From the NCBI GenBank assembly GCA_035708305.1, contig DASSSU010000037.1, forward strand, positions 1 through 52,379: a stretch of DNA of 52,379 bases, given 5' to 3'. The stretch's first letter is position 1. Each line of letters opens with the position of its first letter. This DNA is from Minisyncoccota bacterium. GTDB lineage: Bacteria; Patescibacteriota; Minisyncoccia; Phycocordibacterales; DASSSU01. Position numbers and translations under genes: made by a program. Below, piece by piece: positions 3,350-47,018 of this stretch. The notes beneath the pieces are model-generated. The model ran no database searches. It worked only from the letters and a program-made list of their open reading frames with translations, and had not been told where the DNA came from.

Positions 3350-3413
3350 GCACCATGAGAATGTTCTTTTCGAAGTTTGTGGGCTTCACGAGAAAAGAAT
3401 ATTCTCATGGTGC
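3350..3413 (+). repeat. Family A hairpin, copy A1
   Basis: gcaccatgagaat-gttcttttcgaagtttgtgggcttcacgagaaaagaat-attctcatggtgc. Confidence 0.85.
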
Positions 3414-3465
3414 CTTCTTAAGGTTTCTCCTTTCAAAGGAGAGTTTCGGCTAATTTTTATCTTTT

Positions 3466-4776
3466 ATGATTGACTTTCGCTTCAAAGACACTGCGCTTGT
3501 TTCCGAGGACGAGCTCGTGATGACTTCTCATCGGCTTTTTCCGTATACCGAGCGTCTGAAAATTCTCTCGGAAAACGGCGGGTACGGCGAGCCGGAAGCT
3601 TCGCTCAACCTGCTTTTCGACGGCGCACTTCTGCAGTCTGTTCGTGAGGCGAGTGCGAAACTCAGGGATCCAAGGTTAAAATACATTGTCCTGGTGGGAA
3701 TCGGTGGGTCCAATCTTGGTACGGAAGCGATTTATGACGCGCTTTTGGATCGGAAAAAAATTTGCACGCCCGGAAACCCTGGCATACTTTTCCTGGACAC
3801 GGTGGACAGTGTTCGGGCAAATGCTGTGTGCGAAACACTTCTCGAATGCGAGAGCGCAGAAGAATTTGTCTTGTTGGTCGTCAGCAAATCGGGAAAAACC
3901 ACTGAAACGGCGGCAAATGCAGCGTTCTTGTACAATACGCTTTCGGAACGGTTTAGCGACTTGAATGCACGTGTGGCGTGCATCACCGATGAAGGCTCGG
4001 CGCTCTGGAAGCTTGCGGAAGAGAAAAATTTTCTCACGCTTTCTATCCCCAAAAATGTAGGCGGGCGATACTCAGTGTTTTCTGCGGTGGGGCTTTTGCC
4101 GCTTTCACTTGCGGGAATAGACATTGAAAAAGTTCTCGCTGGTGCAAAGCAGATCCGAAAAGAATGCCTCTTTTCAAATGCGCACAACAACCCCGCGCTG
4201 CTCTCGGCCGTGGTGAAATACTGTCAGTTCAAGAAAGGTGCCCGAGTCCACAACCTTTTTCTTTTTGATTCCTCGCTTGCGGTTTTTGGAAGCTGGTGGC
4301 GGCAGCTCGTGGGGGAGAGTTTAGGGAAGGAGTTTGATTTAAATAGCAATCCGATAAACGACCGCATCCTTCCGATGGTCTCTCTCGGCTCTACGGATTT
4401 GCATTCCGTGGGGCAACTTTATTTGAGCGGAGAGAAAAGCATTTTTACCACGTTTGTTTCTCTCGAAAAAAAGAGAGAAGAAATTCCAACACTTTCGGAT
4501 TCGTCGTTCACACCACTTGTGCCGGAAATCCGCGGAAAGGATTTTTCCAATATCATGGAGGCGATTTTAAAAGGGGTGAAGGAGGCATACCGGAAGAGAA
4601 GTTTGCCTTTTGCGGAAATTTCTCTGCCGGAAATTTCGGAAGAAAACATCGGTGCACTTTTCCAAATGGAAATGCTCTCTACCATGTATCTCGCGTTTCT
4701 TATGAACGTCAACGCATTTGATCAGCCAAACGTAGAAGAATACAAAAAAATCACCCGGGAAATTTTGGAAAAATAA
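3466..4776 (+). CDS. pgi: Glucose-6-phosphate isomerase
   Basis: GIGGS, SKSG.T.ET, GGRYSV, GESLGK and FDQPNVE motifs. Confidence 0.92.
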   Translation: MIDFRFKDTALVSEDELVMTSHRLFPYTERLKILSENGGYGEPEASLNLLFDGALLQSVREASAKLRDPRLKYIVLVGIGGSNLGTEAIYDALLDRKKICTPGNPGILFLDTVDSVRANAVCETLLECESAEEFVLLVVSKSGKTTETAANAAFLYNTLSERFSDLNARVACITDEGSALWKLAEEKNFLTLSIPKNVGGRYSVFSAVGLLPLSLAGIDIEKVLAGAKQIRKECLFSNAHNNPALLSAVVKYCQFKKGARVHNLFLFDSSLAVFGSWWRQLVGESLGKEFDLNSNPINDRILPMVSLGSTDLHSVGQLYLSGEKSIFTTFVSLEKKREEIPTLSDSSFTPLVPEIRGKDFSNIMEAILKGVKEAYRKRSLPFAEISLPEISEENIGALFQMEMLSTMYLAFLMNVNAFDQPNVEEYKKITREILEK

Positions 4777-4809
4777 AAACTGCCCCGGATACTTACCGAG
4801 ACTGTTTTG

Positions 4810-4856
4810 TAAGAATCCGGAGAACAGCACCATGTTCTTTTCTCGCAAAGCCCACG
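4810..4856 (-). repeat. Family A half copy A2, adjacent to B2
   Basis: Minus strand gtgggctttgcgagaaaagaacatggtgctgttctcc matches the 3' arm of A8 (gtgggcttcacgagaaaagaacatgggctgttctcc). Confidence 0.7.
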
Positions 4857-4870
4857 AACGTATTGCAAAA

Positions 4871-5000
4871 CAAAACCTCCATTTTTGGATGAAGACCGAG
4901 GCGCAAGAGAAGAATCCGAAAGAGCCGTACTTACTGGTACGGTGACTGAGTGATTCTTCTCTTGCAACGAAGGTATTCGCCAAAAATGGAGGCTTTGATG
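4871..5000 (-). repeat. Family B nested hairpin, copy B2
   Basis: Outer IR cctccatttttgg/ccaaaaatggagg; inner IR gcaagagaagaatc/gattcttctcttgc; near-identical inverted copy of 46790-46919; starts right after the LOG stop. Confidence 0.9.
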
Positions 5001-5726
5001 TTAATTTTGGCGGCGGATGGGCGCTACCCGAATAATATCCAGCGCCTCTTCAATATCATCTGTGATCGTGTACAGCTCCATGTCTTCTTCGTCGATGGCT
5101 TTGTTTTCCTCGTAGAGATATTTCTTGATAAACCGCTGCATTGGATCCCAAAAATCCTTGCCCATGCAAATGACCGGGACTTTTTCAATCTTGTGCGTCT
5201 GGATGAGCGTAAGCATTTCAAAAAATTCATCGAGTGTACCAAAACCGCCGGGAAAGAAAACGTATGCTTCGGCGGCATAGGACATGAGCACCTTGCGGCA
5301 GAAGAAGTATTCAAACTCCATTTTGCGATTTACGTACGGGTTGGTCGCCTGTTCGTAGGGAAGATGAATGTTCAGGCCGAGTGATTCGCCGTTCGTCTCG
5401 TATGCGCCGCGGTTGCCAGCTTCCATGATGCCCGGACCGCCGCCGGTCACGACACCGAAGCCGTATTCAGAAACGCGCTGTCCGAGTTCGCGTGCCATCT
5501 TGTAGTGCGGGTTGTCGGGTTTGAAGCGCGCTGAACCAAAAAAAGTGATGGTGCGCTCCAACCCTTCGAGGAATTCGAAGCCATGGGTGAATTCTCCGGC
5601 GATGCGGTGTACGCGGTTCTTTACGTGTTCAGCAAACTCATCTTTGGTAAGTGGGCGAATGGGAAGTTTGGCTTCCGGTTTGTTCAAGACGACTCTTTCA
5701 TCTGGCTGGACAGGTTCTTTCAGCAT
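5001..5726 (-). CDS. LOG/SLOG-family protein (TIGR00730-like)
   Basis: TFFGSAR, TGGGPGIMEA and FPGGFGTLDE motifs; start moved to ATG 5726, 6 nt downstream of a TATAAT. Confidence 0.88.
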   Translation of the reverse strand: MLKEPVQPDERVVLNKPEAKLPIRPLTKDEFAEHVKNRVHRIAGEFTHGFEFLEGLERTITFFGSARFKPDNPHYKMARELGQRVSEYGFGVVTGGGPGIMEAGNRGAYETNGESLGLNIHLPYEQATNPYVNRKMEFEYFFCRKVLMSYAAEAYVFFPGGFGTLDEFFEMLTLIQTHKIEKVPVICMGKDFWDPMQRFIKKYLYEENKAIDEEDMELYTITDDIEEALDIIRVAPIRRQN

Positions 5727-5865
5727 GAATTCATTATACAAGAGGAATGGTTTCCAGAAAACTGGAAACAAAAAGAGAGTGGGGAAAAAGCTGGACAAAA
5801 AAGCGGAGATGTGTTAGGTTCAAGTTTAGTCCGTTCATCCCGAACGGGTCAAAGGAGACTTCATC

Positions 5866-6111
5866 ATGAAGACGAAACTCGCTTTGGTTCTTTGCATAAG
5901 TATAGGTATATCTTTGCTCCAAGGCTGCGGCAGTCTCGGAGCAATGGCGGGTTCAGGTGGCTTGGCGGGGATGGCCGCTCAGATCGGTATCGGTACCGCG
6001 GTGAAAGCGGGAAACGCCTACTCGGCCCATGAACGCATGGCACGTGAAGTTGCCACGCAGTGTGCCCAAATGTCCGCTTCTCAACGGGCGCGCATTCCGG
6101 CTTGTAATTAA
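5866..6111 (+). CDS. Small putative lipoprotein
   Basis: Hydrophobic signal ending in lipobox-like LQGC; AGGAG Shine-Dalgarno at 5853-5857; downstream terminator. Confidence 0.6.
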   Translation: MKTKLALVLCISIGISLLQGCGSLGAMAGSGGLAGMAAQIGIGTAVKAGNAYSAHERMAREVATQCAQMSASQRARIPACN

Positions 6112-6202
6112 CGCCTAAAAACCAATATACATACAAAAGAGTACCAGATGAATTATAAAGAGAAAGAGTACGAAAACTATAAAATTTCGCTCGCAATCCT
6201 CT

Positions 6203-6230
6203 AGCCCGTCAATTTTTGACGGGCTTTTTT
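6203..6230 (+). terminator. Intrinsic terminator
   Basis: agcccgtcaa/ttgacgggct stem followed by a T tract. Confidence 0.8.
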
Positions 6231-6261
6231 CTTTTTGCCTGCTCTAGTATGATAGAGGGAT

Positions 6262-6333
6262 AAAGGAGATGGCAAAAACTTCTTTTCTCGTGAAGCCCAC
6301 AGACTTCGAAAAGAAGTTTTTGCCATCTCCTTT
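6262..6333 (-). repeat. Family A hairpin, copy A9, upstream of xseA
   Basis: Minus strand aaaggagatggcaaaaacttcttttc-gaagtctgtgggcttcacga-gaaaagaagtttttgccatctccttt. Confidence 0.85.
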
Positions 6334-6347
6334 CAAACACTCTAAAC

Positions 6348-7964
6348 ATGGATCGGGAACTTTATCTCAAAATTTCAAAATGGCGGGAAAAAACGGCGGC
6401 GCGGGAACGAATGCCGGCCTACCGGATCCTCTCTACACAGGCGGTGGAAGGTATTGCTTCAAGCTTTCCCGAAACAAAAGAAGAGCTGCTGGCGGTCAAA
6501 GGTATTGCGGAGAAAAAATTTGCAAAATATGGAGAAGAGATTCTCAGCATGGTTCGGGAGCATCGCGGTACGGAAGTACCGCAGGATGATCTTTTTTCTG
6601 AGAGTGGCGACGAAGACGGAGAGCAGCCGGACGGAATATCAAAAAAGGAAGAAAAATTTTTTTCCGTCGGGGACTACCTGGAGCTTTTGAACATTGGACT
6701 TCGCCGGAGCGGGGCGAAGGTGAAGGGGGAAATTTCGAGCTTGGATATTCGCGAGCGGTATATTTTTTTCGGTCTGAAAGACGCGGAAGATGGCGCGATG
6801 ATGAGCTGTTTCATGTGGCGAAACGACTACGAGCTTTCCGGGGTGGCGCTTGAAGAAGGAATGGAAGTTTTTGCGACCGGTTTCCCCGAAATCTACAAAC
6901 CGGCAGGGAGGCTTTCTTTCCGGGTGCAGTTCGTGGAGCTGTTCGGGGAGGGGGCACTCAAGAAAGCGTACGATGAGCTGAGGAAAAAACTTGAGAAAGA
7001 AGGACTCTTTGCGGAAGAAACCAAAAAGCCGATACCGGACTACTCCGAGCGGATCGGTGTGATCACTTCCAAAACCGGCGCGGTGATTCACGATTTTCTC
7101 AACAACATCGGAAAGTTTGGCTATCATACCTTTTTTTATGATTCGCGCGTGGAAGGACAGCAGGCAGTGCGCGATCTGGTGCGCGGGGTAAAATTTTTTC
7201 AGAAAAAAAATGATATTGATGTGCTGATAGTAATGCGCGGCGGCGGTTCACTGGAGTCGCTTCAAGCGTTCAACAACGAAATACTCGTGCGGGAAGTAAA
7301 AAAGTGTCCGTTCCCAGTGATCGCGGCGATCGGACACGACAAAGACGTCCCGCTTCTCTCGCTTGCGGCGGATGTGATGGTCTCCACCCCGACGGCGGCG
7401 ACGAAAGTGCTGGATCGTTCCTGGAAAGAAGCGCTTTTGAGGACACGATTTTCGGAGCAGAAGATTTTTGGAGCGTTTCGCGAGGTGTTGCAGTCGAAGC
7501 GGTATGAAATTTCCGAGCTCGGCGGCGTACTTCAGAAATGTATCGGCGTGATTTTGGAAAAGATGCGGCGGGCAGAGCGGGTTTTTGAAATTTCGTCCGG
7601 GAAATTCAGATACGCGCTTGAACAGGTGGGAAAGACACTGGAAGAACGGCAAAAAAATATTTTCCGAAATTTCACGATGGCATTACAAAATGCTGAAAAA
7701 GATCTCCTGCCGCAAGCTCAGGCAATCGTCCGAACTTTCTCGCGCACCATCAGGCAGAAAGAAAAAGCGCTTCAAGATCTGGAAAAGACACTTCGTCTAC
7801 ACAGCCCGAAACGCCAGCTGAAGCTTGGATATAGTATCGTTCGTTCAGGCGGGAAAATTCTCCGAAGTGTGAAAAATGTTACGGCGGGACAAAAGATCGA
7901 CATCACGGTCGTGGATGGTACGTTTCAGTCGTCTGTGGAGAAAATAAAACCCCCTGCCCAATAG
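6348..7964 (+). CDS. xseA: Exodeoxyribonuclease VII large subunit with N-terminal HRDC domain
   Basis: OB-fold (GEISS...YIFFGLKD), RIGVITS.TGAV..D, RGGGSLE.L.AFN.E, IGHD.D, TPT motifs; N-terminal ~70 aa match the HRDC pattern (WR...A....PAY.I...P.T.EEL..VKGI..KK..KYG.EIL). Confidence 0.93.
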   Translation: MDRELYLKISKWREKTAARERMPAYRILSTQAVEGIASSFPETKEELLAVKGIAEKKFAKYGEEILSMVREHRGTEVPQDDLFSESGDEDGEQPDGISKKEEKFFSVGDYLELLNIGLRRSGAKVKGEISSLDIRERYIFFGLKDAEDGAMMSCFMWRNDYELSGVALEEGMEVFATGFPEIYKPAGRLSFRVQFVELFGEGALKKAYDELRKKLEKEGLFAEETKKPIPDYSERIGVITSKTGAVIHDFLNNIGKFGYHTFFYDSRVEGQQAVRDLVRGVKFFQKKNDIDVLIVMRGGGSLESLQAFNNEILVREVKKCPFPVIAAIGHDKDVPLLSLAADVMVSTPTAATKVLDRSWKEALLRTRFSEQKIFGAFREVLQSKRYEISELGGVLQKCIGVILEKMRRAERVFEISSGKFRYALEQVGKTLEERQKNIFRNFTMALQNAEKDLLPQAQAIVRTFSRTIRQKEKALQDLEKTLRLHSPKRQLKLGYSIVRSGGKILRSVKNVTAGQKIDITVVDGTFQSSVEKIKPPAQ

Positions 7965-7974
7965 TGGCAGGGGG
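7950..7974. terminator. Hairpin between convergent xseA and HAD genes
   Basis: ccccctgcc/ggcaggggg stem flanked by A runs on both sides. Confidence 0.6.
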
Positions 7975-7991
7975 AAAAGGGAGGAAAGGAT

Positions 7992-8696
7992 TTAACATCC
8001 TGTGCAAGCCTGAATGATATTTTTTGAGGCAGCGGTCGCTTTTCGGTCTCGGAGGGCTTTCACGAGTGGGGCGAGTTCAGCCAGCCCTGAAATACAATAA
8101 TCAGCTCCGGCACGAAAGAAATTTCCCTCGCGATATTTTTCTTCGACTATTCCAACGTGACCTACGCCGATTATCTCTGCTTCTTTTGCTGCTCGCATAT
8201 CTGAGCATAAATCGCCGATGTACATGATCTGCTGCGGCGGAATGTGCAAAGATCTCACATGCTCTTGAAGCATTTTCGTTTTGTCGAAGTCGGAAAGAAT
8301 GATCTCCGAAAAATAAGAATTCAGTTGGTATCTGTTTAAAAATGCCGGTATATCCTCGTGGCGATTTGCTGTCAGAATAGAAAGGGTGATACCAAGCAGT
8401 TTTAGAGACAAAAGGGCTTCCTGCGTTCCTTCAAATGGGCGCACGGAATGGTAGTATTTCTCTATGTGCTGACTGTACTCTTTGTCCAGTTCTTCGGGAG
8501 AACCTTTGTATCCGAGCGAACGAAAGTACTGAATGGGTGGGGAATCAAAGAGCCTCAGGAAGATACTGTAGAATATTTCGTGAGATGGAAGTGGTATTTT
8601 GAATCTTGCACATGTGTCGGCAACAGCTCTGCAGATCTCAGGAACACTGTTGACGAGCGTTCCGTCAAGATCAAAGCAAATGTGCTGAATAGCCAT
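7992..8696 (-). CDS. HAD-superfamily hydrolase (phosphoglycolate phosphatase-like)
   Basis: Motif I FDLDGTL, motif II LTAN, motif IV IGDLCSD; GGAGG Shine-Dalgarno upstream of ATG 8696. Confidence 0.85.
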   Translation of the reverse strand: MAIQHICFDLDGTLVNSVPEICRAVADTCARFKIPLPSHEIFYSIFLRLFDSPPIQYFRSLGYKGSPEELDKEYSQHIEKYYHSVRPFEGTQEALLSLKLLGITLSILTANRHEDIPAFLNRYQLNSYFSEIILSDFDKTKMLQEHVRSLHIPPQQIMYIGDLCSDMRAAKEAEIIGVGHVGIVEEKYREGNFFRAGADYCISGLAELAPLVKALRDRKATAASKNIIQACTGC

Positions 8697-8791
8697 ACAG
8701 CCTCCAGTGTTCAAATCTCAAAGAACTTTCACAAAGGCCGCTTTATTGATACTATAGTACAGAAAAAAGTCAAATCTTAAGACGAAAACAA

Positions 8792-9016
8792 ATGGAGCAA
8801 AAAAAAATAAATTTAAATGAATCACTGAAAAAACTTGAGGAAATCGCCGGATGGTTTGATTCTCAGGAAGAAGTAGACGTGGAAGTGGGACTGCAAAAAG
8901 TAAAAGAGGGTGCCGCACTCATTGAAGCGAGCAAGAAGCGCCTGAAAGAGATTGAAAATGAGTTTGAGGAAGTGAAGCAGACTATGGAGGAACATTCGGG
9001 CGAAAGGGGTGAGTAG
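8792..9016 (+). CDS. xseB: Exodeoxyribonuclease VII small subunit
   Basis: 74 aa, LNESLKKLEEI...EG..L...SKKRLKE pattern; near xseA. Confidence 0.88.
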   Translation: MEQKKINLNESLKKLEEIAGWFDSQEEVDVEVGLQKVKEGAALIEASKKRLKEIENEFEEVKQTMEEHSGERGE

Positions 9017-9032
9017 GTTCCCCGGTGAAGGC

Positions 9033-9071
9033 GTTCTTTCTGAGGTTTGCAGGCTTCACAAGAAAAAAAAC
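9033..9071 (+). repeat. Family A degenerate copy A3
   Basis: gttctttctgaggtttgcaggcttcacaagaaaaaaaac. Confidence 0.55.
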
Positions 9072-9117
9072 TTCTCAGAGGAAGAAACTGCCTATAAGCA
9101 TTTCGCATAAATATCAA

Positions 9118-9831
9118 TCAATGTGCCGCCGCAAGCGAAAGCACTTTTTTCGCACCCGCTTTTCGTAGCGTTCTTTCGGCCTCGCCGAAGGTGGTTCCTG
9201 TGGTGGTCACATCGTCGATCAAAAGAATTACGGCTTCCGAAAGATTCGTGTTTTGTTTTGCCTGAAAGGCGCCGCGCAAGTTCTTCTCTCGTTCTTTGCG
9301 GTTTTTGGTCAGTGTCTGCGGCGGAGTCTCGCGGATTTTTTGGAGTGCCTCTGGATGAAATTCAAACCATGCACCACCATCGATTTCAAACATGCACTTT
9401 GCTATTTCCGCTGACTGGTTGTACTGCCTGTTTTTCAGGCGCCGTTTCGAGAGCGGAATTGGGACCAGCCAGATCTTCTCTTTTTTTGAAATTTCGGAAT
9501 ACATTATTTCTTCGCTGAGCTTTTCCAGGGCCGCGTCGTAGAGGTGTGGTGCAAAATTCTTCGCTGCATTTCGGTTGCCGTGAAATTTCATGGCTCGGAT
9601 GGTGTTCTTCACAGCGGGGTTCCGGTAGCTAAAAACCGCGAAAACATTTTTATCTTCGAAATACTCTTTCGCACTCTGGAGACAGACGAAACACAGACTG
9701 CTTCCCGACTTGCCGCACCCAAGACAGTATTCTGGGAAAAAAAGATCAGCGCAGATCTTGACGAGCGGCTGGAAAAATTTTCTGAAAGGGAAATAGTGTG
9801 GATAAACTCGGTTTTTTGAATCGGTTTTCAT
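9118..9831 (-). CDS. comF: ComF-family competence protein (double zinc ribbon plus PRTase-like domain)
   Basis: CLGC...CFVC, R.YNQS.EIA and LIDDVTTTGTT motifs. Confidence 0.9.
   Translation of the reverse strand: MKTDSKNRVYPHYFPFRKFFQPLVKICADLFFPEYCLGCGKSGSSLCFVCLQSAKEYFEDKNVFAVFSYRNPAVKNTIRAMKFHGNRNAAKNFAPHLYDAALEKLSEEIMYSEISKKEKIWLVPIPLSKRRLKNRQYNQSAEIAKCMFEIDGGAWFEFHPEALQKIRETPPQTLTKNRKEREKNLRGAFQAKQNTNLSEAVILLIDDVTTTGTTFGEAERTLRKAGAKKVLSLAAAH
9797..9805 (-). promoter_or_regulatory. Perfect DnaA box upstream of the pilM promoter
   Basis: TGTGGATAA, the reverse complement of TTATCCACA; extended -10 TGaTACAAT at 9841-9849. Confidence 0.55.
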
Positions 9832-9878
9832 GATTGCTTGTGATACAATTTAGACATAGAAAAACTTTCTTTACAACC

Positions 9879-11015
9879 ATGGCTATTCTCGAACAGGTAA
9901 AAGGCGCTCTTGCAGATGCGCTTCACCTTCAAAAAACTAACAGCGTACTCGGTCTCGATATCGGGAGTTCTTTTGTGAAAGTTGTACAGCTTCGCAAAGA
10001 CGGCGAAAAAGCGGTTTTGGAAACGTACGGGGAGCTTGCGCTCGGTCCGTATGCTGGTTTGGAAGTTGGTCGCGCTGCAAACCTAAAGCCAGAGCAGATC
10101 ATTCAAGCAGTTTTGGCGCTTTTCAGCGAAGCAAACATCACGACGAAAACAGGCTCAGTAGCAATCCCTCTCGGTTCCACACTTTTGTCGCTGATCGAGA
10201 TGCCAAAGATGAACGAAGCGGAACTGGCGAAAACAATTCCTCTTGAGGCGAGAAAATACATCCCGGTCTCTATTTCAGATGTGTCACTGGATTGGTGGAT
10301 CATTCCGGAAAGGAAAGGAGAAGAAGCAGAAGAGGAAGAAGATGAAACCGAGCCGAAAGAAAAGAAGGAGAAAAAAACCGAAGTGTTGATAGTCGCTATT
10401 CACAATGAAGTGCTCACGAAATATAATGACATCATCAACCGCGCAGAGCTTCAGAACAGCTCTTTGGAAATCGAAACATTCAGTGCGGTTCGTTCCACGC
10501 TTTCTCATGACATGTCTCCCTTGATGATGCTTGACCTGGGAGCGGCAACTACGAAACTTTCTTTGGTGGAGCAGGGGATCATCAAAAGTTCCCACATCCT
10601 CAACAAAGGTTCGCAGGACATCACCATCGCGCTTTCCCATTCGCTCAACATGTCCATGCCGAAGGCGGAGGAACTGAAGCGGAAGGTCGGGCTTCTGGGC
10701 GAGGGGGACGATGCAGCCGCAAGCAAGGTCATGGAAGCGGAAGTGGATTATATTTTGACAGAAGCCAACCGTGTTCTTTTAAATTACCAGACGAAGTATC
10801 GCCGTACGGTGACCAAGGTGGTGCTGATCGGCGGCGGAGTGCTTCTGAAGGGTTTCGAAGACGAGGCGAAGAAAAAGCTTTCGACGGAGGTGGTTTATGG
10901 AGATGCGTTTTCGAAAGTTCAGACGCCGCCATTTCTGGAGCCAGTCCTGAAGGAGGCGGGCCCGGAGTTTGCGGTGGCACTCGGCCTTGCCCTCCGTCGT
11001 CTCCAAGATCTTTAA
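9879..11015 (+). CDS. pilM: Type IV pilus assembly protein PilM
   Basis: LGLDIGSS.VKVVQL, LDLGAATT and LIGGG actin-like motifs; start set at ATG 9879. Confidence 0.9.
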   Translation: MAILEQVKGALADALHLQKTNSVLGLDIGSSFVKVVQLRKDGEKAVLETYGELALGPYAGLEVGRAANLKPEQIIQAVLALFSEANITTKTGSVAIPLGSTLLSLIEMPKMNEAELAKTIPLEARKYIPVSISDVSLDWWIIPERKGEEAEEEEDETEPKEKKEKKTEVLIVAIHNEVLTKYNDIINRAELQNSSLEIETFSAVRSTLSHDMSPLMMLDLGAATTKLSLVEQGIIKSSHILNKGSQDITIALSHSLNMSMPKAEELKRKVGLLGEGDDAAASKVMEAEVDYILTEANRVLLNYQTKYRRTVTKVVLIGGGVLLKGFEDEAKKKLSTEVVYGDAFSKVQTPPFLEPVLKEAGPEFAVALGLALRRLQDL

Positions 11016-11137
11016 AATTTCCAAAATTGGCGATCTGCTGTGTTAAGCTCTCCATTTTGACCCTCACTGTACGAAAGCAGTACGACTCGGGATCAAAATG
11101 GAGAGCTTACCTTGCATGTTATCCAATTGTGAAAGTT
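11016..11137 (+). repeat. Family B nested hairpin, copy B3
   Basis: Directly after the pilM TAA; inner IR taagctctccattttga/tcaaaatggagagctta; core ctcactgtac-gaaagca-gtacgactc; loops cgatctgctgtgtt and ccttgcatgttat. Confidence 0.85.
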
Positions 11138-11231
11138 AGATAGTGGTTTTAAAAGTTTGTTAGAAAACAAACTTCGTCCAAATCTGAAACCTTTTATCGT
11201 GGCAAGACCAAAAATTATTTAATTACTCAAC

Positions 11232-11927
11232 ATGCCAGATTTTAAAACATCATTCATTCCCAAAAAGACCATTGCGAGGGCGAAGGTACAGACCGGAACC
11301 CCGGTGGATCTTTTTCTGGTGATTGCAGTTCTCATTTTTCTTCTCGCGGCTTTGGCGGCAGGAGGAGTCTTTGCGTATCAGTTCAAAGTAAAGAGTGACA
11401 TCACGAAAAAAAGCGAACAGCTTGCTCTGGCGCGGAAGGAAATTGACCCAAATCTCATTGCGCAGTTGGAGAGCCTGGACTTGCAGCTTGGAAAAGCCAA
11501 AGAAGTTCTTGGTACTCACCAGGCGATGACCACTCTTTTCGATAAATTAGAGCAGAACACACTTTTGAGCGTACAGTTTGATTCGTTTGCTTACTCGCGC
11601 AACAAAGACGTCCACCAGATTACGATGAATGGCGAAGCAAAAAACTACATGTCTCTGGCGCTTCAGTCAGATGTTTTCAGCAAAGCGGGATTTATTAAGA
11701 ATGCTGTTTTCTCAAACCTCAACCTGAACACAGCGGGGAATGTCCAGTTCCAGATGGTTGCGGATGTAGACCCGTCTATTTTCACTTACACGCCACAGGA
11801 CGGTTCGCCGGACGGCAGTATGGATAACGCCACGGGAACAGGTATCGGAAGTTCCAATACTCCTGTATCGACGCAAAGCCAAACCGTTCCGACGGGAACA
11901 CCGCAAGCCCCAGCAACGCCGCAATAA
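11232..11927 (+). CDS. PilN-like pilus alignment protein
   Basis: Single N-terminal TM, coiled coil and ferredoxin-like pattern; lies between pilM and pilO. Confidence 0.7.
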   Translation: MPDFKTSFIPKKTIARAKVQTGTPVDLFLVIAVLIFLLAALAAGGVFAYQFKVKSDITKKSEQLALARKEIDPNLIAQLESLDLQLGKAKEVLGTHQAMTTLFDKLEQNTLLSVQFDSFAYSRNKDVHQITMNGEAKNYMSLALQSDVFSKAGFIKNAVFSNLNLNTAGNVQFQMVADVDPSIFTYTPQDGSPDGSMDNATGTGIGSSNTPVSTQSQTVPTGTPQAPATPQ

Positions 11928-11941
11928 TTCCGAATAAACAT

Positions 11942-12514
11942 ATGAATTCAAGCAAATTACTTTTTCCGATCCTTCTCATCATCGCCGCCGGTTTGATCTT
12001 TTATCTTTTTATCAACCCGACATATGCGAATGTGAACAATCTTAAACAAGAGCGCGCGCAGTACGATACAGCACTTGGAGATGCTGCTCAGCTTCAAGAA
12101 AAACTTCAATCCCTCCGCGAACAGCTGAACAGCTTTTCTCCGGATGAACTGACTCGGCTTGATCACATGCTTCCGAATCACGTGGACAACGTGCGCCTCA
12201 TTTTGGAACTCAATGCAATTGCTGCCCGCAACAACATGGTGATGAAGAACATCAACTTTGCCCTGGCTCCGGATGCATCAGGCAATGCGAACAGTCCATC
12301 CAACAGCCAAACGAAAGAAGTTCAGACAGTTGGAGTGAGTTTTTCGGTGAAAGGAGATTATCATACGCTCATAGCATTTTTGCAGGATCTGGAAAGAAGC
12401 TTGCGCATGATCGACATCGAATCGGTCAACTTCAGCGTACCGCAGGGTTCCACGGCTGATTCTTCAACATACACTTACAGCATTGTTCTTCACACTTATT
12501 GGCTGAATTATTAA
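11942..12514 (+). CDS. pilO: PilO-like pilus alignment protein
   Basis: N-terminal TM, coiled coil, V.G.Y..L..FL.DLE.SLR.IDI pattern. Confidence 0.8.
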   Translation: MNSSKLLFPILLIIAAGLIFYLFINPTYANVNNLKQERAQYDTALGDAAQLQEKLQSLREQLNSFSPDELTRLDHMLPNHVDNVRLILELNAIAARNNMVMKNINFALAPDASGNANSPSNSQTKEVQTVGVSFSVKGDYHTLIAFLQDLERSLRMIDIESVNFSVPQGSTADSSTYTYSIVLHTYWLNY

Positions 12515-12526
12515 ACACATATCAAC

Positions 12527-13102
12527 ATGGGAGACAAGAAACAAATAGGACTTTTCATTCTTCTGGTCGCGGTACTGGCTGTTGCGTATTTTGGTTACCG
12601 ATCATTTTCCAGCGGACAGAAAGGGGCAGCGCTCATCTCTGGAGATGCAAACCAGGAGAGCGCCACGGTAGCGGGGCAGCAGATTCTCTCGCTCTTGGAT
12701 GATCTGAAAAAAATTCATCTCGATGACTCTATTTTTGCTGATCCGTCATTCCTTTCACTCAAAGACTTCACCGTATCTATTCAAAATCAGCCGAAGGGAC
12801 GTCCAAACCCATTCTCGCCGATCGGAGATGACGACTTCAGCGGATTTCAGAGAGAAGACATGACTTCCGACGCATCCTCTTCTTCTGCAGGAACCTCTTC
12901 TTCCGTGGCCGGCTCGCAGACTTCTGTAATCCCGACTGGCACACAGACAAATCCGAACTCTTCCGAATCTGCACCTTCTGATTCATCAGCAAATTCCGGA
13001 ACTGCACCGACGAACCAGCCCACTTCTGACAATTCTTTCGGTTCTCCAGTAAATTCCGGCCCAACCGTTCCGCCACCAAGCCCGGCTGTTCCTTCCATGT
13101 AG
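12527..13102 (+). CDS. Membrane-anchored hypothetical protein in the PilP position, with Ser/Thr/Pro-rich tail
   Basis: N-terminal TM, GRPNPF motif resembling PilP RDPF, low-complexity C-terminus. Confidence 0.6.
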   Translation: MGDKKQIGLFILLVAVLAVAYFGYRSFSSGQKGAALISGDANQESATVAGQQILSLLDDLKKIHLDDSIFADPSFLSLKDFTVSIQNQPKGRPNPFSPIGDDDFSGFQREDMTSDASSSSAGTSSSVAGSQTSVIPTGTQTNPNSSESAPSDSSANSGTAPTNQPTSDNSFGSPVNSGPTVPPPSPAVPSM

Positions 13103-13107
13103 GCAAC

Positions 13108-13138
13108 AAGCGGGAGTGTTTGGAAAACTTCCGCTTTT
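13108..13138 (+). terminator. Possible weak terminator or processing hairpin before pilB
   Basis: aagcgggagt/acttccgctt stem with a short T run. Confidence 0.4.
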
Positions 13139-13155
13139 AAATTCCACTCTTTTTT

Positions 13156-15051: not shown

Positions 15052-15170
15052 GACTTCCATTCTTGGCACTCTTCTGCGTTGAGCAATTTTATTTTGGCAT
15101 TCACCGTACGAAGAGTACGGCTCATACCAAAATAAAATGCTCGCCTTGAATAGCGCTCAAGAATGAAACC
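15052..15170 (+). repeat. Family B nested hairpin, copy B6
   Basis: Directly after the pilB TGA; inner IR gagcaattttattttgg/ccaaaataaaatgctc; core tcaccgtac-gaaga-gtacggctc; outer cattcttg/caagaatg. Confidence 0.85.
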
Positions 15171-15278
15171 CCTAGGAAATCTAAAACTTTCAGCGAACGC
15201 TTGTATGTCAAGAATGAAACCATTTGAACAGTGGTTTGAATTCAAAAAGGTGGAAGAAAAATTTTTAAATACAAAAAC

Positions 15279-15713: not shown

Positions 15714-15733
15714 ACATTTAATCAGATAAAACT

Positions 15734-16798: not shown

Positions 16799-16915
16799 GA
16801 CTTCCAAATTGAGCGATCTCCTGTGTCAAAGCCTGTATTTTCCTGTTCATCTGCCTATGGCAGACTCACAGCAAAATGCAGACTTTTCCTTGAATCTCAC
16901 CTCAATTTGAAAGCC
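16799..16915 (+). repeat. Family B nested hairpin, copy B7 (variant core)
   Basis: Directly after the pilT TAA; outer cttccaaattgag/ctcaatttgaaag; loops cgatctcctgtgtc and tccttgaatctcac; core tca-tctgc-ctatg-gcaga-ctc. Confidence 0.8.
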
Positions 16916-16999
16916 TCTCACGTATTTCCGAGTTTAAAGATTCTGAGAAATGAAACCCTTGCTCTCGGTGGTTCCCTGAAAAAATCCTTGTCACCTAAA

Positions 17000-35422: not shown

Positions 35423-35466
35423 ATTTCTGAAGGCTTCCAGTTTTGAGGAATTTTGGAGTGAATGAC

Positions 35467-35510
35467 TTCTGTTCTTTTCGAAGTTTGTAGACTTCACGAG
35501 AAGAGAAGAT
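35467..35510 (+). repeat. Family A hairpin, copy A6
   Basis: ttctgttcttttcgaagtttgtagacttcacgagaagagaa, between lemA and htpX. Confidence 0.8.
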
Positions 35511-35570
35511 GGAGCCGTTCTCCAAACTTGAGCTTCAATTTACGCTTCTCTGTAATTCAAATTTAAAATA

Positions 35571-38283: not shown

Positions 38284-38892
38284 ATGGCTCGATTATTTCT
38301 CATCCGACACGGAAAGTCCGAATGGAACAAGCTCGGGAAGTGGACGGGGTGGACGGATGTCTCGCTTGATGAAGACGGCATCAAAGAAGCGGAAAGAGCG
38401 GGGCAGCTGCTTTGCAATGAAGACGTGCACAAGGTCTACACGTCGAAACTCAAAAGAACGCACGAAACGTTTGAGCATTTGAAGAATGGGGCAAACAAGG
38501 AATTCCCTGAATCAGTGCCGTGCGAGGAATTGAATGAAAGAAATTATGGAATTCACACGGGGAAAAACAAGTGGGAAGTGAAAGAGGAGGTCGGAGAGGA
38601 AGCGTTCAATCAACTCAGAAGGGGATGGAACGTGGAAGTGCCGGAAGGAGAAACGCTCAAGGACGTGCATGCTCGGGTCGTGCCGTTTTACGAATCGAAT
38701 ATTAAAAAAGATCTTGCAGAAGGCAAAAATGTCTTAGTGGTCGCGCACGGCAATACTCTTCGAGCGCTCGTGAAGCACTTGGAAGACTTGGATGAAGCGG
38801 CGGTATGCGAAGTGGAAATCGGCACCGGTGAAATCCATTGCTACGAAACGGATGAAAATGGGCAGATTGTTTCCAAGGAGGTGAGGAAGTGA
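38284..38892 (+). CDS. gpmA: 2,3-bisphosphoglycerate-dependent phosphoglycerate mutase
   Basis: RHGKSEWN, LNERNYG and VAHGNTLRAL motifs; follows eno. Confidence 0.9.
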   Translation: MARLFLIRHGKSEWNKLGKWTGWTDVSLDEDGIKEAERAGQLLCNEDVHKVYTSKLKRTHETFEHLKNGANKEFPESVPCEELNERNYGIHTGKNKWEVKEEVGEEAFNQLRRGWNVEVPEGETLKDVHARVVPFYESNIKKDLAEGKNVLVVAHGNTLRALVKHLEDLDEAAVCEVEIGTGEIHCYETDENGQIVSKEVRK

Positions 38893-38916
38893 TTGTGGTA
38901 TCATGAAGGTATCTTT

Positions 38917-39855
38917 ATGACACAAGAAGAAAAAAAATTTGGTGAGGTCATGATTTATCGCGATGGTGATAAACCGCGACTTGAAGTCAAACTTGAACAA
39001 GGAACGGTGTGGCTGACGCAATCACAGATGGTGGAGCTTTTTGAAAGTAGCAAGGCAAACGTGAGCGAGCATATCAAGAATATTTACGAAGAAGGCGAAC
39101 TCAGGGAAAACACAGTTGTTCGGAAATTCCGAACAACTGCCCAAGATGGAAAGACCTACAATGTTGCTCACTATAATCTGGATATGATCATATCGCTGGG
39201 GTATCGAATAAAATCTCATACTGCGACTCAGTTTCGTATGTGGGCGACGGGCGTGCTGCGTGAGTACACTCTCCAGGGTGTGGCAGTGAATCAAAAACGA
39301 CTCGACCAGCTGGGAAAGTACCTCGATATTGTTTCGCGTTCGGAAATTGCGGAAGTCTCGGGTGTGGGTGAGATTGTGAAAGAATACATCGGTGCGCTTC
39401 ATCTGCTTGAGGAATACGACGACAACAGGCTGAGCGAGCCGGAAGGGAGGAAAGAAAGTTGGAAACTAACCTACGAGGAAGCGCGGACTTTTCTTGAGAA
39501 AATAAAAAAGCAAGAAGACTTTGGCGAGAATTTTGCAAATGAACGAAGTGAGCATTTCGGAGGTGTCGTCGCCGGTTTGTATCAAACATTTGGTGGGAAG
39601 GAACTCTACAAAAGTGTGGAGGAAAAAGCGGCGAATCTTCTGTATCAGGTGGTGAAAGACCATCCATTTGTGGATGGCAACAAACGTTCCGCAGCGGCAC
39701 TCTTTATTTTTTTCCTCTCCAAAAACGGCATCCGCTCGACAATCAACAGTAACGCACTTGCGGCAACTATCCTCATGGTCGCGCTTTCCGATCCATCTGA
39801 AAAAGATCAGATGATTCTTTTGGTGCGCAATTTTCTTGATAGCGGGAGAAAGTAG
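38917..39855 (+). CDS. RhuM-like N-terminal domain fused to a Fic/Doc domain
   Basis: TVWLTQ.QM.ELF, YNLDMIISLGYR..S..ATQFR.WAT and Fic motif HPFVDGNKR. Confidence 0.9.
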   Translation: MTQEEKKFGEVMIYRDGDKPRLEVKLEQGTVWLTQSQMVELFESSKANVSEHIKNIYEEGELRENTVVRKFRTTAQDGKTYNVAHYNLDMIISLGYRIKSHTATQFRMWATGVLREYTLQGVAVNQKRLDQLGKYLDIVSRSEIAEVSGVGEIVKEYIGALHLLEEYDDNRLSEPEGRKESWKLTYEEARTFLEKIKKQEDFGENFANERSEHFGGVVAGLYQTFGGKELYKSVEEKAANLLYQVVKDHPFVDGNKRSAAALFIFFLSKNGIRSTINSNALAATILMVALSDPSEKDQMILLVRNFLDSGRK

Positions 39856-39927: not shown

Positions 39928-40349
39928 ATGACCTTGGGAGTACGAGCAATAATAAAAAGAAAAAATTCGCTCATAATGGTGGAACACACGGAGAAAGAGC
40001 ATGGTGTTTTTTTCTTTTTCCAGGTGGTGGAATAGAAGAACACGAAAGTATTTTTATGGCGGCTGAACGCGAAGTCTTGGAGGAAACAGGATTGGCTGTG
40101 AAAGCGGAAAAAATCCTTTACATTCGTGAAGTAAAATATAAGAAAAAATATGGATTAGAGTTTTATGTGTTGTGCAAATATGTTTCAGGCACGCCAAGGC
40201 TTGGAAAAGATCCTGAACTTGGGGAAAATGATCAAATACTGACAAGGGTGGAAGAGATTGATATATCAAAACTTGATACTGTAAAGTGGAGACCGGAAGA
40301 GCTTCAAGGAGTGCTTATCAAAGAAACCGCCAACCTCGAAGAAATTTGA
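39928..40349 (+). pseudogene. NUDIX hydrolase split by a -1 frameshift in a T run
   Basis: N-part MTLGVRAIIK...GVFF from ATG 39928 stops at TAG 40033-40035; the -1 frame continues FPGGGIEEHESIFMAAEREVLEETG (Nudix box) to TGA 40349. Confidence 0.8.
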
Positions 40350-40537
40350 GAATATAAAATATTTAGGACTTACTTCTTTGGGGTAGAGGTTTAAAAAAGG
40401 GGGCGGATTGTTTCCAAGGAGGTGAGAAAGTAAACAGCATTGGTAACTGCGAGAATCCTCCAATACCTTGTTATTTTCACTGATCCGAAAGAAAATAAAG
40501 TACAGAACAAGTTACATTTTCTTTGATTTCATGAAAT

Positions 40538-44730: not shown

Positions 44731-44789
44731 ATTTCTACATGATAGCAAATCGAAACAGAAAAGAAAAAGGGAATGACTTTGGAAATTCC

Positions 44790-44835
44790 ACCATATATTT
44801 TTTGAAGTTTGTGGGCTTCATGAAAAGAGCATATG
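44790..44835 (+). repeat. Family A degenerate copy A7
   Basis: catatattttttgaagtttgtgggcttcatgaaaagagcatatg. Confidence 0.65.
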
Positions 44836-44926
44836 CTTGTGGTTTTCAGACCGATAAACTTTCCGAAAAATAAAAAATGGGGAAAATGAAATTTCAAAGA
44901 TGTTTTCTTCTTGTATAATGAAATGA

Positions 44927-46789
44927 ATGAAAACGAGTTTTCTTGCCGCCTTGGGATGGTTTCTCCTTGCGGTACTCGGCGCGGGAATGTGGTATCTGCT
45001 TCGCTTTGGAGGCGAGGCGGTGTATTCGCCGTTTTTGCCGGAGGTTGCTTTTCTCGCTTTTTTTCTCGCGGGATTTTTTGTTTTTCTGATTCTGCGCAAA
45101 ACACTCAAAACGCGGGCGAAAATTCTTGCGTACGATCAGGAACTCAGGCACAAAAATGAAATGTACGATCTCATTTCTGGCGGACTCGACGACGGGATTT
45201 GGGATTGGGATTTCAAGACTGGAAAAGTTTTTTTTTCGGATGAGTGGAAGAAGCTTTTGGAGTTCAAAGATCGAGGGAGGCTTGGGGCGCGCTTTGAAAA
45301 TTCTCCCGAAGGATTGCAGTTGAAAGCGCAAAGTGCGGACGCGGAAAACAGCACGGTACCCGGAAAAGTAGAGACGATCGCGGATTTCGAAGATACGGCG
45401 GACTGGTGGGCGGGGCGGATTCACCCGGACGACATTGACCAAGTGAAGCAGCAGATGGATCTGCATTTCGCGGGACAGAAGCCGTTTTATGAAGCGGAGT
45501 ACCGGTTTTTGAACGGAAAGCAGGAGTATGTGTGGATCATCGATCGCGGCCGGGCGGTGAAAGACGCGAGAGGAAAGCTCAGTCACATGGCCGGGATCAC
45601 GAGCAGTATTCAGGATTTGAAGAATGTGGAGAAAGTTTTGAAAGGACGTACCAGCGAACTCGAAGCTGCAAAAGCGCACATCGAAAGCGAAAAAGCGCAA
45701 ACAGAAACCGTGCTGGAGTCGATCGGTGAAGGCGTGATCGCAGTGGACAAAAAAGGCCTGGTCACGGTGGCGAACCCCGCGGGGGCAAACATGCTCGGGC
45801 TTTCGAAAGAAGACATGATCGGCATGACCTTTGCCAACGTGATTCCGAAAGAAGAAGATCGCAAAGAGCAGCCGACACAAAAAGAAGATCGCCTTGTGTA
45901 CCAAACCCTCGCGACGGGCAAGAAATATTCCGCGACCTCCTACTACTATCGTTCGGATGATGCAAAATTTCCGGCGGCGGTCACTTCTGCGCCGATTGTG
46001 CTGGACGGAGCGCTTGCGGGGGCGATTGTGGTTTTTCGTGACACCACGCGTGAAATGGAGATCGACAAACAAAAAACGGAATTTGTTTCGCTTGCGTCTC
46101 ACCAACTTCGCACACCGCTTTCCGCCGTGCGCTGGTACTCGGAAATGGTGCTGGGGGAAAAGATCGGTCCCCTAAACGACAAGCAGCGGAAGTATGTGCA
46201 GGAAGTCTACGACAGCAACTTGCGGATGATCGAGCTGGTGAACGCACTCTTGAACGTATCGCGCATTGAGCTGGGAACCTTTGCCGTGGAGCCATCGGAA
46301 GTAAACCTGGGTGAAATGTTTGAAAGCGTGGTGGACGAGCTCATGCCAGCCATGCGGGCAAAAAACCTTCACTTTGAAAAGCATTATGAAAACGCACCGA
46401 AAGCCTTTTTTGTGGATCCGAACCTCATGCGGATCGTTTTCCAAAACTTGCTTTCCAACTCGGTGAAGTACACGCCGGAGGGTGGAAGTGTGGGTATTTC
46501 GGTGGAAGAAGTTGGGGCATATTTGCGGGTGAAAGTCTACGACACCGGCTACGGCATCCCGAAAGCCGATCAGCCAAAAATGTTTACCAAGCTTTTCCGT
46601 GCGAGCAACGTGACGACAAAAGACACGGAAGGAACGGGTCTCGGTTTGTACATCATCAAGTCCGTGGTAGAAAAAACCGGCGGGCGGATTTGGTTTGAAT
46701 CGGAGGAAAATAAAGGAACAACGTTTTTTGTGGAGTTGCCGATGAAGGGGATGAGTAAGATTGAAGGCACAAAAGGCCTCGAACCTTGA
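44927..46789 (+). CDS. Membrane PAS/PAC sensor histidine kinase
   Basis: Two N-terminal TMs; PAS (GIWDWD, RIHPDD) and second PAS; H-box SHQLRTPL; NLLSNSVKY, DTGYGI and GTGLGL. Confidence 0.95.
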   Translation: MKTSFLAALGWFLLAVLGAGMWYLLRFGGEAVYSPFLPEVAFLAFFLAGFFVFLILRKTLKTRAKILAYDQELRHKNEMYDLISGGLDDGIWDWDFKTGKVFFSDEWKKLLEFKDRGRLGARFENSPEGLQLKAQSADAENSTVPGKVETIADFEDTADWWAGRIHPDDIDQVKQQMDLHFAGQKPFYEAEYRFLNGKQEYVWIIDRGRAVKDARGKLSHMAGITSSIQDLKNVEKVLKGRTSELEAAKAHIESEKAQTETVLESIGEGVIAVDKKGLVTVANPAGANMLGLSKEDMIGMTFANVIPKEEDRKEQPTQKEDRLVYQTLATGKKYSATSYYYRSDDAKFPAAVTSAPIVLDGALAGAIVVFRDTTREMEIDKQKTEFVSLASHQLRTPLSAVRWYSEMVLGEKIGPLNDKQRKYVQEVYDSNLRMIELVNALLNVSRIELGTFAVEPSEVNLGEMFESVVDELMPAMRAKNLHFEKHYENAPKAFFVDPNLMRIVFQNLLSNSVKYTPEGGSVGISVEEVGAYLRVKVYDTGYGIPKADQPKMFTKLFRASNVTTKDTEGTGLGLYIIKSVVEKTGGRIWFESEENKGTTFFVELPMKGMSKIEGTKGLEP

Positions 46790-46919
46790 TATCAAAACCT
46801 CCATTTTTGGCGAATACCTTTGTTGCAAAAGAAGAATCACTCAGTCACCGTAACCGGAAGTACGGCTCCCTCGGATTCTTCTTTTGCGCCTCGGTCTTCA
46901 TCCAAAAATGGAGGTTTTG
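46790..46919 (+). repeat. Family B nested hairpin, copy B5
   Basis: Directly after the kinase TGA; outer caaaacctccatttttgg/ccaaaaatggaggttttg; inner gcaaaagaagaatc/gattcttcttttgc; core gtcaccgta..gtacggctcc. Confidence 0.9.
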
Positions 46920-46952
46920 TTTTTCAAAATTCTGGAGGTGGTTGCTCACCGA

Positions 46953-47018
46953 GGAGGACAGCCCATGTTCTTTTCGAAGTTTGTGGGCTTCACGAGAAAA
47001 GAACATGGGCTGTTCTCC
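46953..47018 (+). repeat. Family A hairpin, copy A8
   Basis: ggaggacagcccatgttcttttcgaagtttgtgggcttcacgagaaaagaacatgggctgttctcc. Confidence 0.9.

Follow-up and report, generated by a model that had tools for sequence, protein, structure and literature searches.

The window examined in this study is a 52-kb segment (52,379 nt) of the chromosome of an uncultivated, ultra-small soil bacterium of the Patescibacteria, or Candidate Phyla Radiation (CPR), of Paceibacteria-like type. The placement, as Paceibacteria/Parcubacteria-type CPR, follows from homologues of PilC and PGI. Pfam annotation of its approximately 60 open reading frames (ORFs) indicated ordinary CPR content, with a type IV pilus cluster, ligA, metG, eno, glyA, xseA/xseB, and a two-component pair. 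The gene calls were corrected for a small xseB-like gene (plus strand, 8792-9013) and for a small lipoprotein gene (plus strand, 5866-6111) followed by a terminator at 6203-6225; overlapping small ORFs had no Pfam matches. The spacers between the genes contain a family of bulged hairpins, designated family A, which is the subject of this study, and a longer structured hairpin, designated element B.

Family A copies, their context, and element B

An initial annotation of this DNA had listed nine hairpins, likened to repetitive extragenic palindromic (REP) sequences, that share a bulged core. Both strands of the window were searched with the core query GAAGTTTGTGGGCTTC, allowing up to three mismatches. 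Eight matches were obtained (Table 1). The chance expectation is 0.72, and in 100 shuffles the count never rose to eight; the core is therefore not present at background frequency. The 3' half-site CTTCACGAGAAAAGAA added a ninth, truncated copy on the minus strand at 4835-4850. Furthermore, a repeat finder reported a 41-nt direct-repeat family at seven plus-strand sites, and long inverted repeats with arms of 23-26 nt, 92-100% complementary, coincided with A1, A3, A5, and A9. The core scan, the half-site scan, and the inverted repeats together confirmed the nine annotated sites, as eight full copies and one truncated copy. When a covariance model trained on the eight full copies was run over the window, exactly these eight were recovered and nothing else matched. 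Scores were 55-75 bits in the sense direction, and 20-29 bits for the antisense of the four intact copies. By state, the nine copies comprise four intact, four decayed, and one truncated.

All nine copies are intergenic. Six are flanked by co-directional genes, two occupy convergent gene ends, and one occupies a divergent spacer; they usually lie shortly past a stop codon or past an element B. The orientation check, run within the window with the corrected gene calls, showed that eight of the nine point in the same direction as the adjacent gene; A3 alone is antisense to both neighbors. Several copies sit between genes that are likely co-transcribed (pilT-pilC and kinase-regulator). The two closest copies, A5 and A6, share one orientation and are separated by 1.6 kb.

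No T-tail was found on any family A copy, as judged by a terminator scan of positions 1-20000 and by direct reading of the tails of A7-A9. The same scan detected genuine T-tailed terminators nearby, at 6203-6225 (plus strand) and at 7974-7950 and 4802-4782 (minus strand). On the minus strand, the LOG stop codon is followed by B, A2h, and the last of these terminators, in that order. A2h thus lies between a stop codon and a real terminator, and therefore in a transcribed 3' region.

Table 1 Positions and properties of the family A copies, hairpin I1, and element B.
Feature	Coordinates	Strand	Core match	State and position	Structure and score
A1	3346-3417	+	3372+	Intact; starts 18 nt past the stop codon of a PfkB-type kinase gene, ends 49 nt before the PGI start	Inverted repeat I3; 22 contiguous pairs under the bulge; -41.7 kcal/mol sense, -34.3 antisense; 75.1 bits
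A2h	4819-4860	-		Truncated, core 3' half and right arm remain, 5' half missing; between B (4997-4871) and an intrinsic terminator (4802-4782), downstream of the LOG-family gene	CTTTGCGAGAAAAGAA at 4835-4850, minus strand; right arm CATGGTGCTGTTCTCC; paralogue of B+A9
A3	6262-6333	-	6292-	Intact; past the plus-strand terminator 6203-6225, 15 nt before the xseA start codon	Inverted repeat I2, 100% complementary over 26 nt; -46.3 kcal/mol; 72.3 bits
A4	9028-9075	+	9042+	Decayed; directly past the stop codon of the small xseB-like gene (8792-9013)	3 core mismatches; bulge ACAA; poor arms; 54.9 bits
A5	17000-17069	+	17025+	Intact; between pilT and pilC, 84 nt downstream of B (16798-16916)	Inverted repeat I4; 25 contiguous pairs including 2 G·U
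A6	18653-18700	+	18667+	Decayed; directly follows hairpin I1	Decayed core; arms gone; 62 bits
A7	35452-35526	+	35480+	Partly decayed; between LemA and HtpX-like genes	Right arm of common type, left arm diverged; paralogous right flank in run X4; 63.3 bits
A8	44778-44850	+	44804+	Decayed; divergent spacer between SHMT and histidine-kinase genes	Bulge ATGA; 64.8 bits
A9	46953-47018	+	46976+	Intact; between histidine-kinase and response-regulator genes, 34 nt downstream of B (46793-46919)	Inverted repeat I5; -45.9 kcal/mol; 75.3 bits; arm type common to about 3-6 copies
I1	18555-18643	+			31-bp hairpin, 97% complementary; family A inner stem TTTCTTTTC/GAAAAGAAA with a different 41-nt tip
B, window	2084-2220, 11018-11130, 16798-16916, 18335-18464, 46793-46919	+			
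B, window	4871-4997	-		Precedes A2h	
B, relatives	L029 6490-6616; L037 about 2310-2440				

Element B is a structured hairpin of about 125 nt that begins at the stop codon, usually has a T-rich tail, and continues into a TTTTTCAAAAyhyTGGArGTGGTT extension. It has a variable, covarying outer stem and a conserved GGCGA(T/A)..GTT internal loop. Five of the six window copies carry the tip CACCGTAC..GTACGGCTC, and related genomes have diverged forms of it. B had no match in Rfam; it looks like an elaborate conserved terminator or a 3'-untranslated-region (UTR) RNA.

Four of the nine family A copies are directly downstream of B. In addition, the block B+A9 (46793-47018) is paralogous, arm included, to the block B+A2h (4997-4819, minus strand), based on inverted repeats I9/I11 and I16/I17 and alignment by eye, indicating that B and A were duplicated there as one block. 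The initial annotation had regarded family A as a second, independent palindromic family; the linkage with B makes this independence doubtful.

The tip motif TCACCGTAC-N(3-6)-GTACGGCTC recurs on unrelated lower stems at 2123-2139, 4925-4942, 15104-15120, 18391-18407, and 46848-46865 in the window, and at 3554-3598 in the relative L030. It also caps a plain A/T-flanked terminator after pilB (15086-15138). The motif has the same design as family A, a conserved tip on a variable stem, and is present in related species.

The hairpin I1 directly precedes the decayed A6, and its tip itself forms a hairpin. I1 may be a nested insertion, or else a sister family or related variant of family A. When the window was searched for further tips between CTTTTC...GAAAAG, I1 was the sole find.

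Hairpin structure and variation of the arms

The family A unit is an imperfect palindrome of 70-90 nt with a conserved tip of approximately 42 nt, for which the consensus is TGTTCTTTTC·GAAGTT·TGTG·GGCTTC·ACGA·GAAAAGAAYAT. In minimum-energy folds, the tip has a 6-bp apical stem (GAAGUU/GGCUUC) that includes two U·G pairs and is closed by a UGUG loop; on the 3' side, the four nucleotides ACGA bulge out. This bulge and the two U·G pairs make the tip asymmetric. Under the bulge is an invariant 8-bp stem, TTCTTTTC/GAAAAGAA, followed by a lower stem that differs between copies yet remains complementary. The intact hairpins A1, A3, A5, and A9 have 28-32 bp, with 22-26 contiguous pairs below the bulge and folding energies of -42 to -46 kcal/mol. 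The arms of A7 and A8 are imperfect, and A4 and A6 retain almost no arms.

Three copies have the same core over 36 nt, and a fourth differs solely by a T>C change in the apical stem. The other cores carry 2-9 substitutions over 41 nt (76-90% identity), so that the core is less invariant than had been annotated. Similarly, the 3' ACGA bulge described for all copies was kept in six of eight; it is ACAA at 9042 and ATGA at 44804. The apical helix is 100% paired, and its three one-sided changes (U·G>C-G, U·G>U-A, and A-U>G·U) all preserve pairing. Hence, the segment initially given as tttgtggg is better described as two U·G pairs with a UGUG loop. The pairing-preserving change from T-G to T-A that had been assigned to A6 does exist; however, it belongs to the copy at 35480, the seventh in the list.

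At positions 12-19, counted from the core, the four intact hairpins have 2-4 pair types per position (at least three at seven of the eight positions), all of them Watson-Crick except one G·U, and positions 1-8 have no variation. In a 48-column alignment, 90.6% of the cells were paired versus 82.1% in shuffles, none of 500 being as high, and at most 64% were paired when the partner was slid. The intact stems contain five non-Watson-Crick pairs, in each of which the 5' arm supplies a G and the 3' arm a T; this gives G·U on the sense strand and A·C on the opposite strand. The sense fold was more stable than the antisense fold in all eight copies. Taken together with the co-orientation with genes, this G·U pattern indicates that the folded sense strand matters, which could be RNA or single-stranded DNA.

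The arms had been described as copy-specific inverted repeats. This applies to A1 and A5, of which the arms were unique in the metagenome, the depth returning to baseline just beyond the core. Good arms are present in only four copies, however, and the A9 (46953) arm is common to A2h and approximately 3-6 further metagenome copies. Single-contig flanks exposed more copies with related arms, for example GGAGAACAGTG.. and CGGAAACAAAATATA/TGTATTCTGTTTTCCG. A right-arm motif, C[CT]GTT[TC]TCC(AAACTT), recurs in several copies, as does a semi-conserved TTTGGAG...CTCCAAA foot. Since many copies carry a related arm, the arm travels with the element; the arms form subfamilies plus some singletons. Two other origins of the arms were considered and rejected. 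Copying from nearby sequence was discarded because, elsewhere in the window, the arms had no match. As a general rule, insertion into the loops of terminators already in place was discarded because the arms have no T-tails, differ in composition from the A/T-flanked terminators of this genome, and are in many copies of a related type.

Copy number, relatives, and known repeat families

To estimate the copy number, Logan contigs of the soil metagenome runs X1 and X2 were placed on A5, A1, and A9, and the summed depth of the core was compared with that of the unique flanks. The 42-nt core had a depth of about 1000 versus 6-11 for the flanks in X1, and about 615-630 versus 6-8 in X2, a ratio of about 90-140. 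The depth fell sharply at 17015/17056 and at 3358/3405. Core-carrying contigs had depths of 6.8-9.8, the same as the window's own contigs, and the copies therefore belong to this genome. Allowing for double counting, as flanking contigs overlap the collapsed core unitigs, the genome carries roughly 50-130 copies of family A. This depth-based figure is consistent with the density of nine copies in 52 kb. On one metagenome contig, two cores were found about 640 nt apart in the same orientation.

Outside this genome, the family was not recovered. A search of 185,579 GTDB species genomes with a 20-nt degenerate tip gave 27 matches against our own chance estimate of about 35, and none had the CTTTTC/GAAAAG flanks. 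In the JGI metagenome contigs, a strict pattern gave no match and a loose pattern gave five chance matches; a pattern scan of IMG/VR gave none. Core words were indexed solely in soil metagenome runs that also hold this genome. The host organism was present in soil and rhizosphere metagenomes of several studies, and was not found among the GTDB species representatives or the JGI contigs.

One similar structure was observed in two Phycisphaerales metagenome-assembled genomes (L002 3570-3603 and L011 651-684), where ggaggaactc-GAAGTTTGTGGACTTC-ACGA-gagttcctcc places the same tip and bulge on a perfect 10-bp stem. It represents a single locus, coding, within a 1174-aa ORF on two orthologous contigs. 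Ten perfect flanking pairs would be very unlikely among 27 chance matches.

The window was also compared with relatives, namely L029 and L037 from one JGI sample (PilC 81% and PGI 53% identical) and the more distant L030 (PilC 73%) and L036 (PilC 62%). All four are syntenic with the window and have no family A. The covariance model found no copy in 43.7 kb of these relatives, and none was found at five comparable junctions of the nearest ones. The pilT-pilC gap is 338 nt in the window versus 19, 35, and 1 nt in L029, L030, and L036, respectively. Likewise, the PfkB-PGI gap is 137 nt versus 22 nt, and the convergent PGI/LOG gap is 224 nt versus 73 nt. These results indicate that family A was gained in this lineage after its split from the nearest sampled relatives, which, being too distant for comparison at the level of the arms, reveal the absence of A and not the original target. 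B is present at orthologous sites in L029 and L037 (after GH15 and after pilC), where A is absent; B is thus the old element, and A was gained recently. In the pilus operon, spacers are 1-80 nt in L036 (4123-11700), which is the sole distant relative long enough for this comparison and is almost without hairpins, versus 200-620 nt in the window (9834-19400). As B, A, and other hairpins fill these spacers, the intergenic DNA is markedly expanded for a CPR genome.

Known repeat families share some features of family A. REP sequences are defined as palindromes of 20-40 bp in which a GTAG or CGTC tetranucleotide is left unpaired at one terminus (PMC3733652), and are recognized as imperfect hairpins (PMC3733652, PMC2817692). 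Family A resembles REPs and REPINs as a set of short extragenic palindromes with about 100 copies per genome, species-specific, located mostly downstream of coding regions, where the flanking genes are co-directional or convergent, and plausibly transcribed as RNA hairpins. It is a high-copy extragenic palindrome like them, but the full hairpin is 70-90 nt, the tip alone is about 42 nt, and the stem of 28-32 bp is much longer than that of a REP. Furthermore, REPs conserve the whole 20-40-bp unit, whereas family A conserves the tip with its 4-nt bulge while the lower stem varies. The ends of the intact copies (left ..GGAAT|GCACC.., ..GTTTG|AAAGG.., ..CTAAA|CCAGA.., and ..ACCGA|GGAGG..; right CTTCTT, ATCCCT, ACACAT, and AAATAA) had no GTAG or CGTC tag; in the family, GTAG arises solely in two decayed copies, by mutation of the loop. 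No REPIN doublets or alternating clusters of the bacterial interspersed mosaic element (BIME) type were seen, the nine copies being solitary. In REP-RAYT systems, a single-copy RAYT (Y1 HUH) gene is flanked by cognate REPs, and the 52 kb scanned has no RAYT. Family A is a genuine family of extragenic palindromes with an asymmetric conserved tip. The proposed analogy with REP/BIME units holds for copy number, intergenic location, and lineage restriction, and fails for the terminal tag, the BIME arrangement, and the conserved part, which is the tip and not the whole stem.

The ends of IS200/IS605 elements and PATEs are bulged, imperfect subterminal hairpins that are read as single-stranded DNA by a strand-specific enzyme. 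Such a reading would account for the asymmetric tip of family A and for an orientation bias relative to replication. However, IS200/IS605 elements have two hairpins flanking a body and a conserved cleavage tetranucleotide, whereas family A has one hairpin per unit, and neither TnpA nor TnpB is encoded in the window. ERIC and Correia/NEMIS sequences are long intergenic palindromes co-transcribed with their neighbors, and their RNA hairpins are RNase targets that alter the stability of the flanking mRNA. They are conserved over their full length, and Correia elements have terminal inverted repeats and a TA target duplication; family A shows neither. Integron attC sites are also hairpins in which extra-helical bases determine strand choice, with variable sequence and conserved pairing. 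Their layout is the opposite one, with the outer R/L boxes conserved and the center variable, and they occur in cassette arrays beside an integrase, none of which is present here. As for classical miniature inverted-repeat transposable elements (MITEs), the conserved part of family A is central and not terminal, several copies have the semi-conserved TTTGGAG...CTCCAAA foot, and no consistent direct repeats flank the intact copies; A6 alone is flanked by GTGAAC, possibly by chance.

A search against Rfam 15 at the gathering score matched only a tRNA-Ser in the window, and the permissive mode applied to the A5 and A9 regions gave only generic long-hairpin (miRNA precursor) noise far under the threshold. 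On these grounds, we rejected group II intron domain V, ribozymes, and other Rfam families as identities of family A. Our literature searches returned no report of a REP- or MITE-type family in CPR bacteria.

Several other repeats were observed in the window. A 36-nt direct repeat, 89% identical, at 38855-38890 and 40396-40431 brackets about 1.5 kb containing a RhuM/Fic-domain gene (38893-39855) and a NUDIX fragment (40056-40349), and opens a lower-GC stretch (40-44 kb, GC about 0.40). The bracketed segment looks like an inserted cassette with a duplicated 3' end of a phosphoglycerate-mutase-like gene. The paralogous pilB-like and pilT-like ATPase genes share 44 nt (14566-14609 and 16409-16452) with 98% identity, well above expectation for the rest of the genes, which may reflect gene conversion; this stretch yields spurious joints when metagenome contigs are placed on the window. 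Finally, a tandem 15-nt (5-codon) Gly/Ser/Thr-rich repeat lies at 23067-23209 within a 616-aa pilin-like protein (21732-23582).

Origin and possible function of family A

The gain by insertion and the coexistence of intact, decayed, truncated, and block-duplicated copies are the behavior of non-autonomous elements of the REP/MITE type. Our leading interpretation, in which we have about even confidence, is that family A is a lineage-specific, non-autonomous palindromic repeat, noncoding and functionally REP/MITE-like, of this Patescibacterium chromosome. Under this interpretation, the family would spread as DNA and would depend for its mobilization on a trans-acting, structure-specific enzyme that recognizes the folded single strand by its asymmetric tip, by analogy with RAYT on REP hairpins and TnpA on IS200/IS605 ends. 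The asymmetric conserved tip would serve as the recognition module for this trans-acting, strand-specific enzyme. Complementarity of the arms might be held by hairpin-templated correction, by selection for foldability, or by both. After insertion, a copy would be co-transcribed with the upstream gene, and its 28-32-bp RNA hairpin could work not as an intrinsic terminator but as a barrier or processing site at the 3' end. The mobilizing enzyme, the recognition by a protein proposed in the initial annotation, and this RNA role are inferences.

Several observations weigh against this interpretation. First, no transposase, HUH/RAYT, or integrase gene was found among the ORFs of the 52-kb window by Pfam, so that the search for HUH/RAYT nucleases suggested in the initial annotation gave no candidate there. 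Second, no empty-site or excision allele was seen for six of the nine A sites in eight soil metagenome runs; the sole joints observed were cross-alignments among B paralogues and between the paralogous pilB and pilT genes. The population looks near-clonal, and with no empty-site allele, mobility was not directly seen. Third, the orientation bias is confounded with the direction of replication, as GC skew is positive over the entire window. Fourth, the cores of A1, A5, and A9 are identical and yet stand on wholly different, perfectly paired arms, which plain copy-and-decay of a whole-hairpin element does not explain. For these arms, one of four options must be true: fast concerted change of the arms, one templating the other; homogenization of the tip; insertion or conversion of the tip only; or host selection at each locus.

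The last option leads to the main rival, which we consider possible but clearly less probable than REP/MITE-like spread. It holds that the copies are host-selected, cis-acting RNA hairpins in 3'-UTRs and inter-cistronic spacers, the bulged tip of which is bound or cut by a dedicated protein (e.g., of RNase III or K-turn type) to form a post-transcriptional regulon. In that case, the lower stem need only pair, and transposition would be secondary or absent. Arms that have fully turned over under identical cores and remain perfectly paired, those of A1 and A5 being metagenome-unique, are as this rival predicts. So are the confinement of stem imperfections to G·U on the sense strand, the constantly stabler sense fold, the co-orientation of eight of nine copies with transcription, and the transcribed position of A2h. 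Moreover, the second hairpin family, with the tip CACCGTAC..GTACGGCTC, shares the conserved-tip, variable-stem design, and this tip occurs in hairpins of the two closest relatives. However, about half of the window copies are decayed or truncated, which is unexpected if each were needed at its locus, and the genes at the same junctions manage without family A in all sampled relatives. In addition, four copies follow a T-tailed B hairpin, where little read-through is expected, and one copy is antisense to both neighbors. No RNA run holding the locus was found, which counts against REP/MITE-like spread and a host regulon alike.

Because identical tips stand on unrelated, perfectly paired, metagenome-unique arms in A1 and A5, we keep a less orthodox reading, although we think it rather unlikely: that family A is not plain selfish DNA and is either a new kind of mobile hairpin or a CPR-specific regulon of protein-bound hairpins. 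In the former case, the 42-nt tip would be transposed or converted, and the complementary arms would be made at or after insertion by hairpin-primed or template-switch synthesis. If so, this would be a palindrome-building mode of transposition not described for bacterial repeats. In the latter case, the bulged tip would be a recognition module; it could be a candidate K-turn-like GA/GA arrangement when drawn as CUUUUC-GA-AGUU...GGCU-UCAC-GA-GAAAAG.

It is improbable that family A is a DNA site for a chromosomal function, such as an uptake signal, a nucleoid-organizing site, or a recombinase site. In its favor, the copies are scattered over intergenic spacers, the organism has a large type IV pilus/competence cluster, with type IV pilus genes and comF in this window, and uptake sequences in Neisseria and Pasteurellaceae are frequently arranged as inverted pairs within hairpins at gene ends. 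Nevertheless, the conserved unit here is asymmetric, 42 nt long, and present in about 10^2 copies, whereas known uptake signals measure 9-12 nt and number about 10^3 copies; the window contains no isolated half-site, and decayed copies are common.

Still less credible is the view that the copies are ordinary intrinsic terminators sharing a loop by chance. They do lie past stop codons and form very stable hairpins, but no T-run follows the stem although T-tailed terminators occur nearby, and a 42-nt tip identical between unrelated genes is no property of a terminator. Several copies also separate genes that are likely co-transcribed. Since family A neither occurs at background frequency nor consists of ordinary terminators lacking a conserved bulge (ACGA in six of eight copies), the finding of the family itself stands.

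Finally, we give almost no weight to guide-RNA-like units, either of TIGR-Tas systems or as solo CRISPR repeats, with the variable arms as spacers. TIGR systems are reported from parasitic bacteria, with Patescibacteria mentioned (PMC12045711), and the conserved tip, variable arms, and semi-conserved GGAG/CTCC foot superficially recall their layout. However, TIGR units form tandem arrays beside a Nop-domain Tas gene, each unit consisting of an edge repeat, a 9-nt spacer A, a loop repeat, and a 9-nt spacer B, the two spacers being independent (PMC12045711). Family A was rejected as such a guide because its copies are solitary and dispersed, its arms are mutually complementary and match nothing else in the window, and no Cas or Nop-domain/Tas gene was found among the window ORFs.

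For the organism, about 10^2 copies of 70-90 nt would amount to roughly 1% of the genome, if a size of about 1 Mb is assumed. Family A and the older B make the intergenic spacers several-fold larger in a tiny CPR genome. Either an active mobilization system or a lineage-specific RNA-level mechanism must exist in an organism thought to be short of room for either. A conserved bulged tip on variable complementary arms is unlike REP, MITE, or attC, and could be used as bait for its partner protein. In practical terms, because contigs end inside the core, family A breaks short-read assemblies at every copy, which affects the binning and closing of such genomes.

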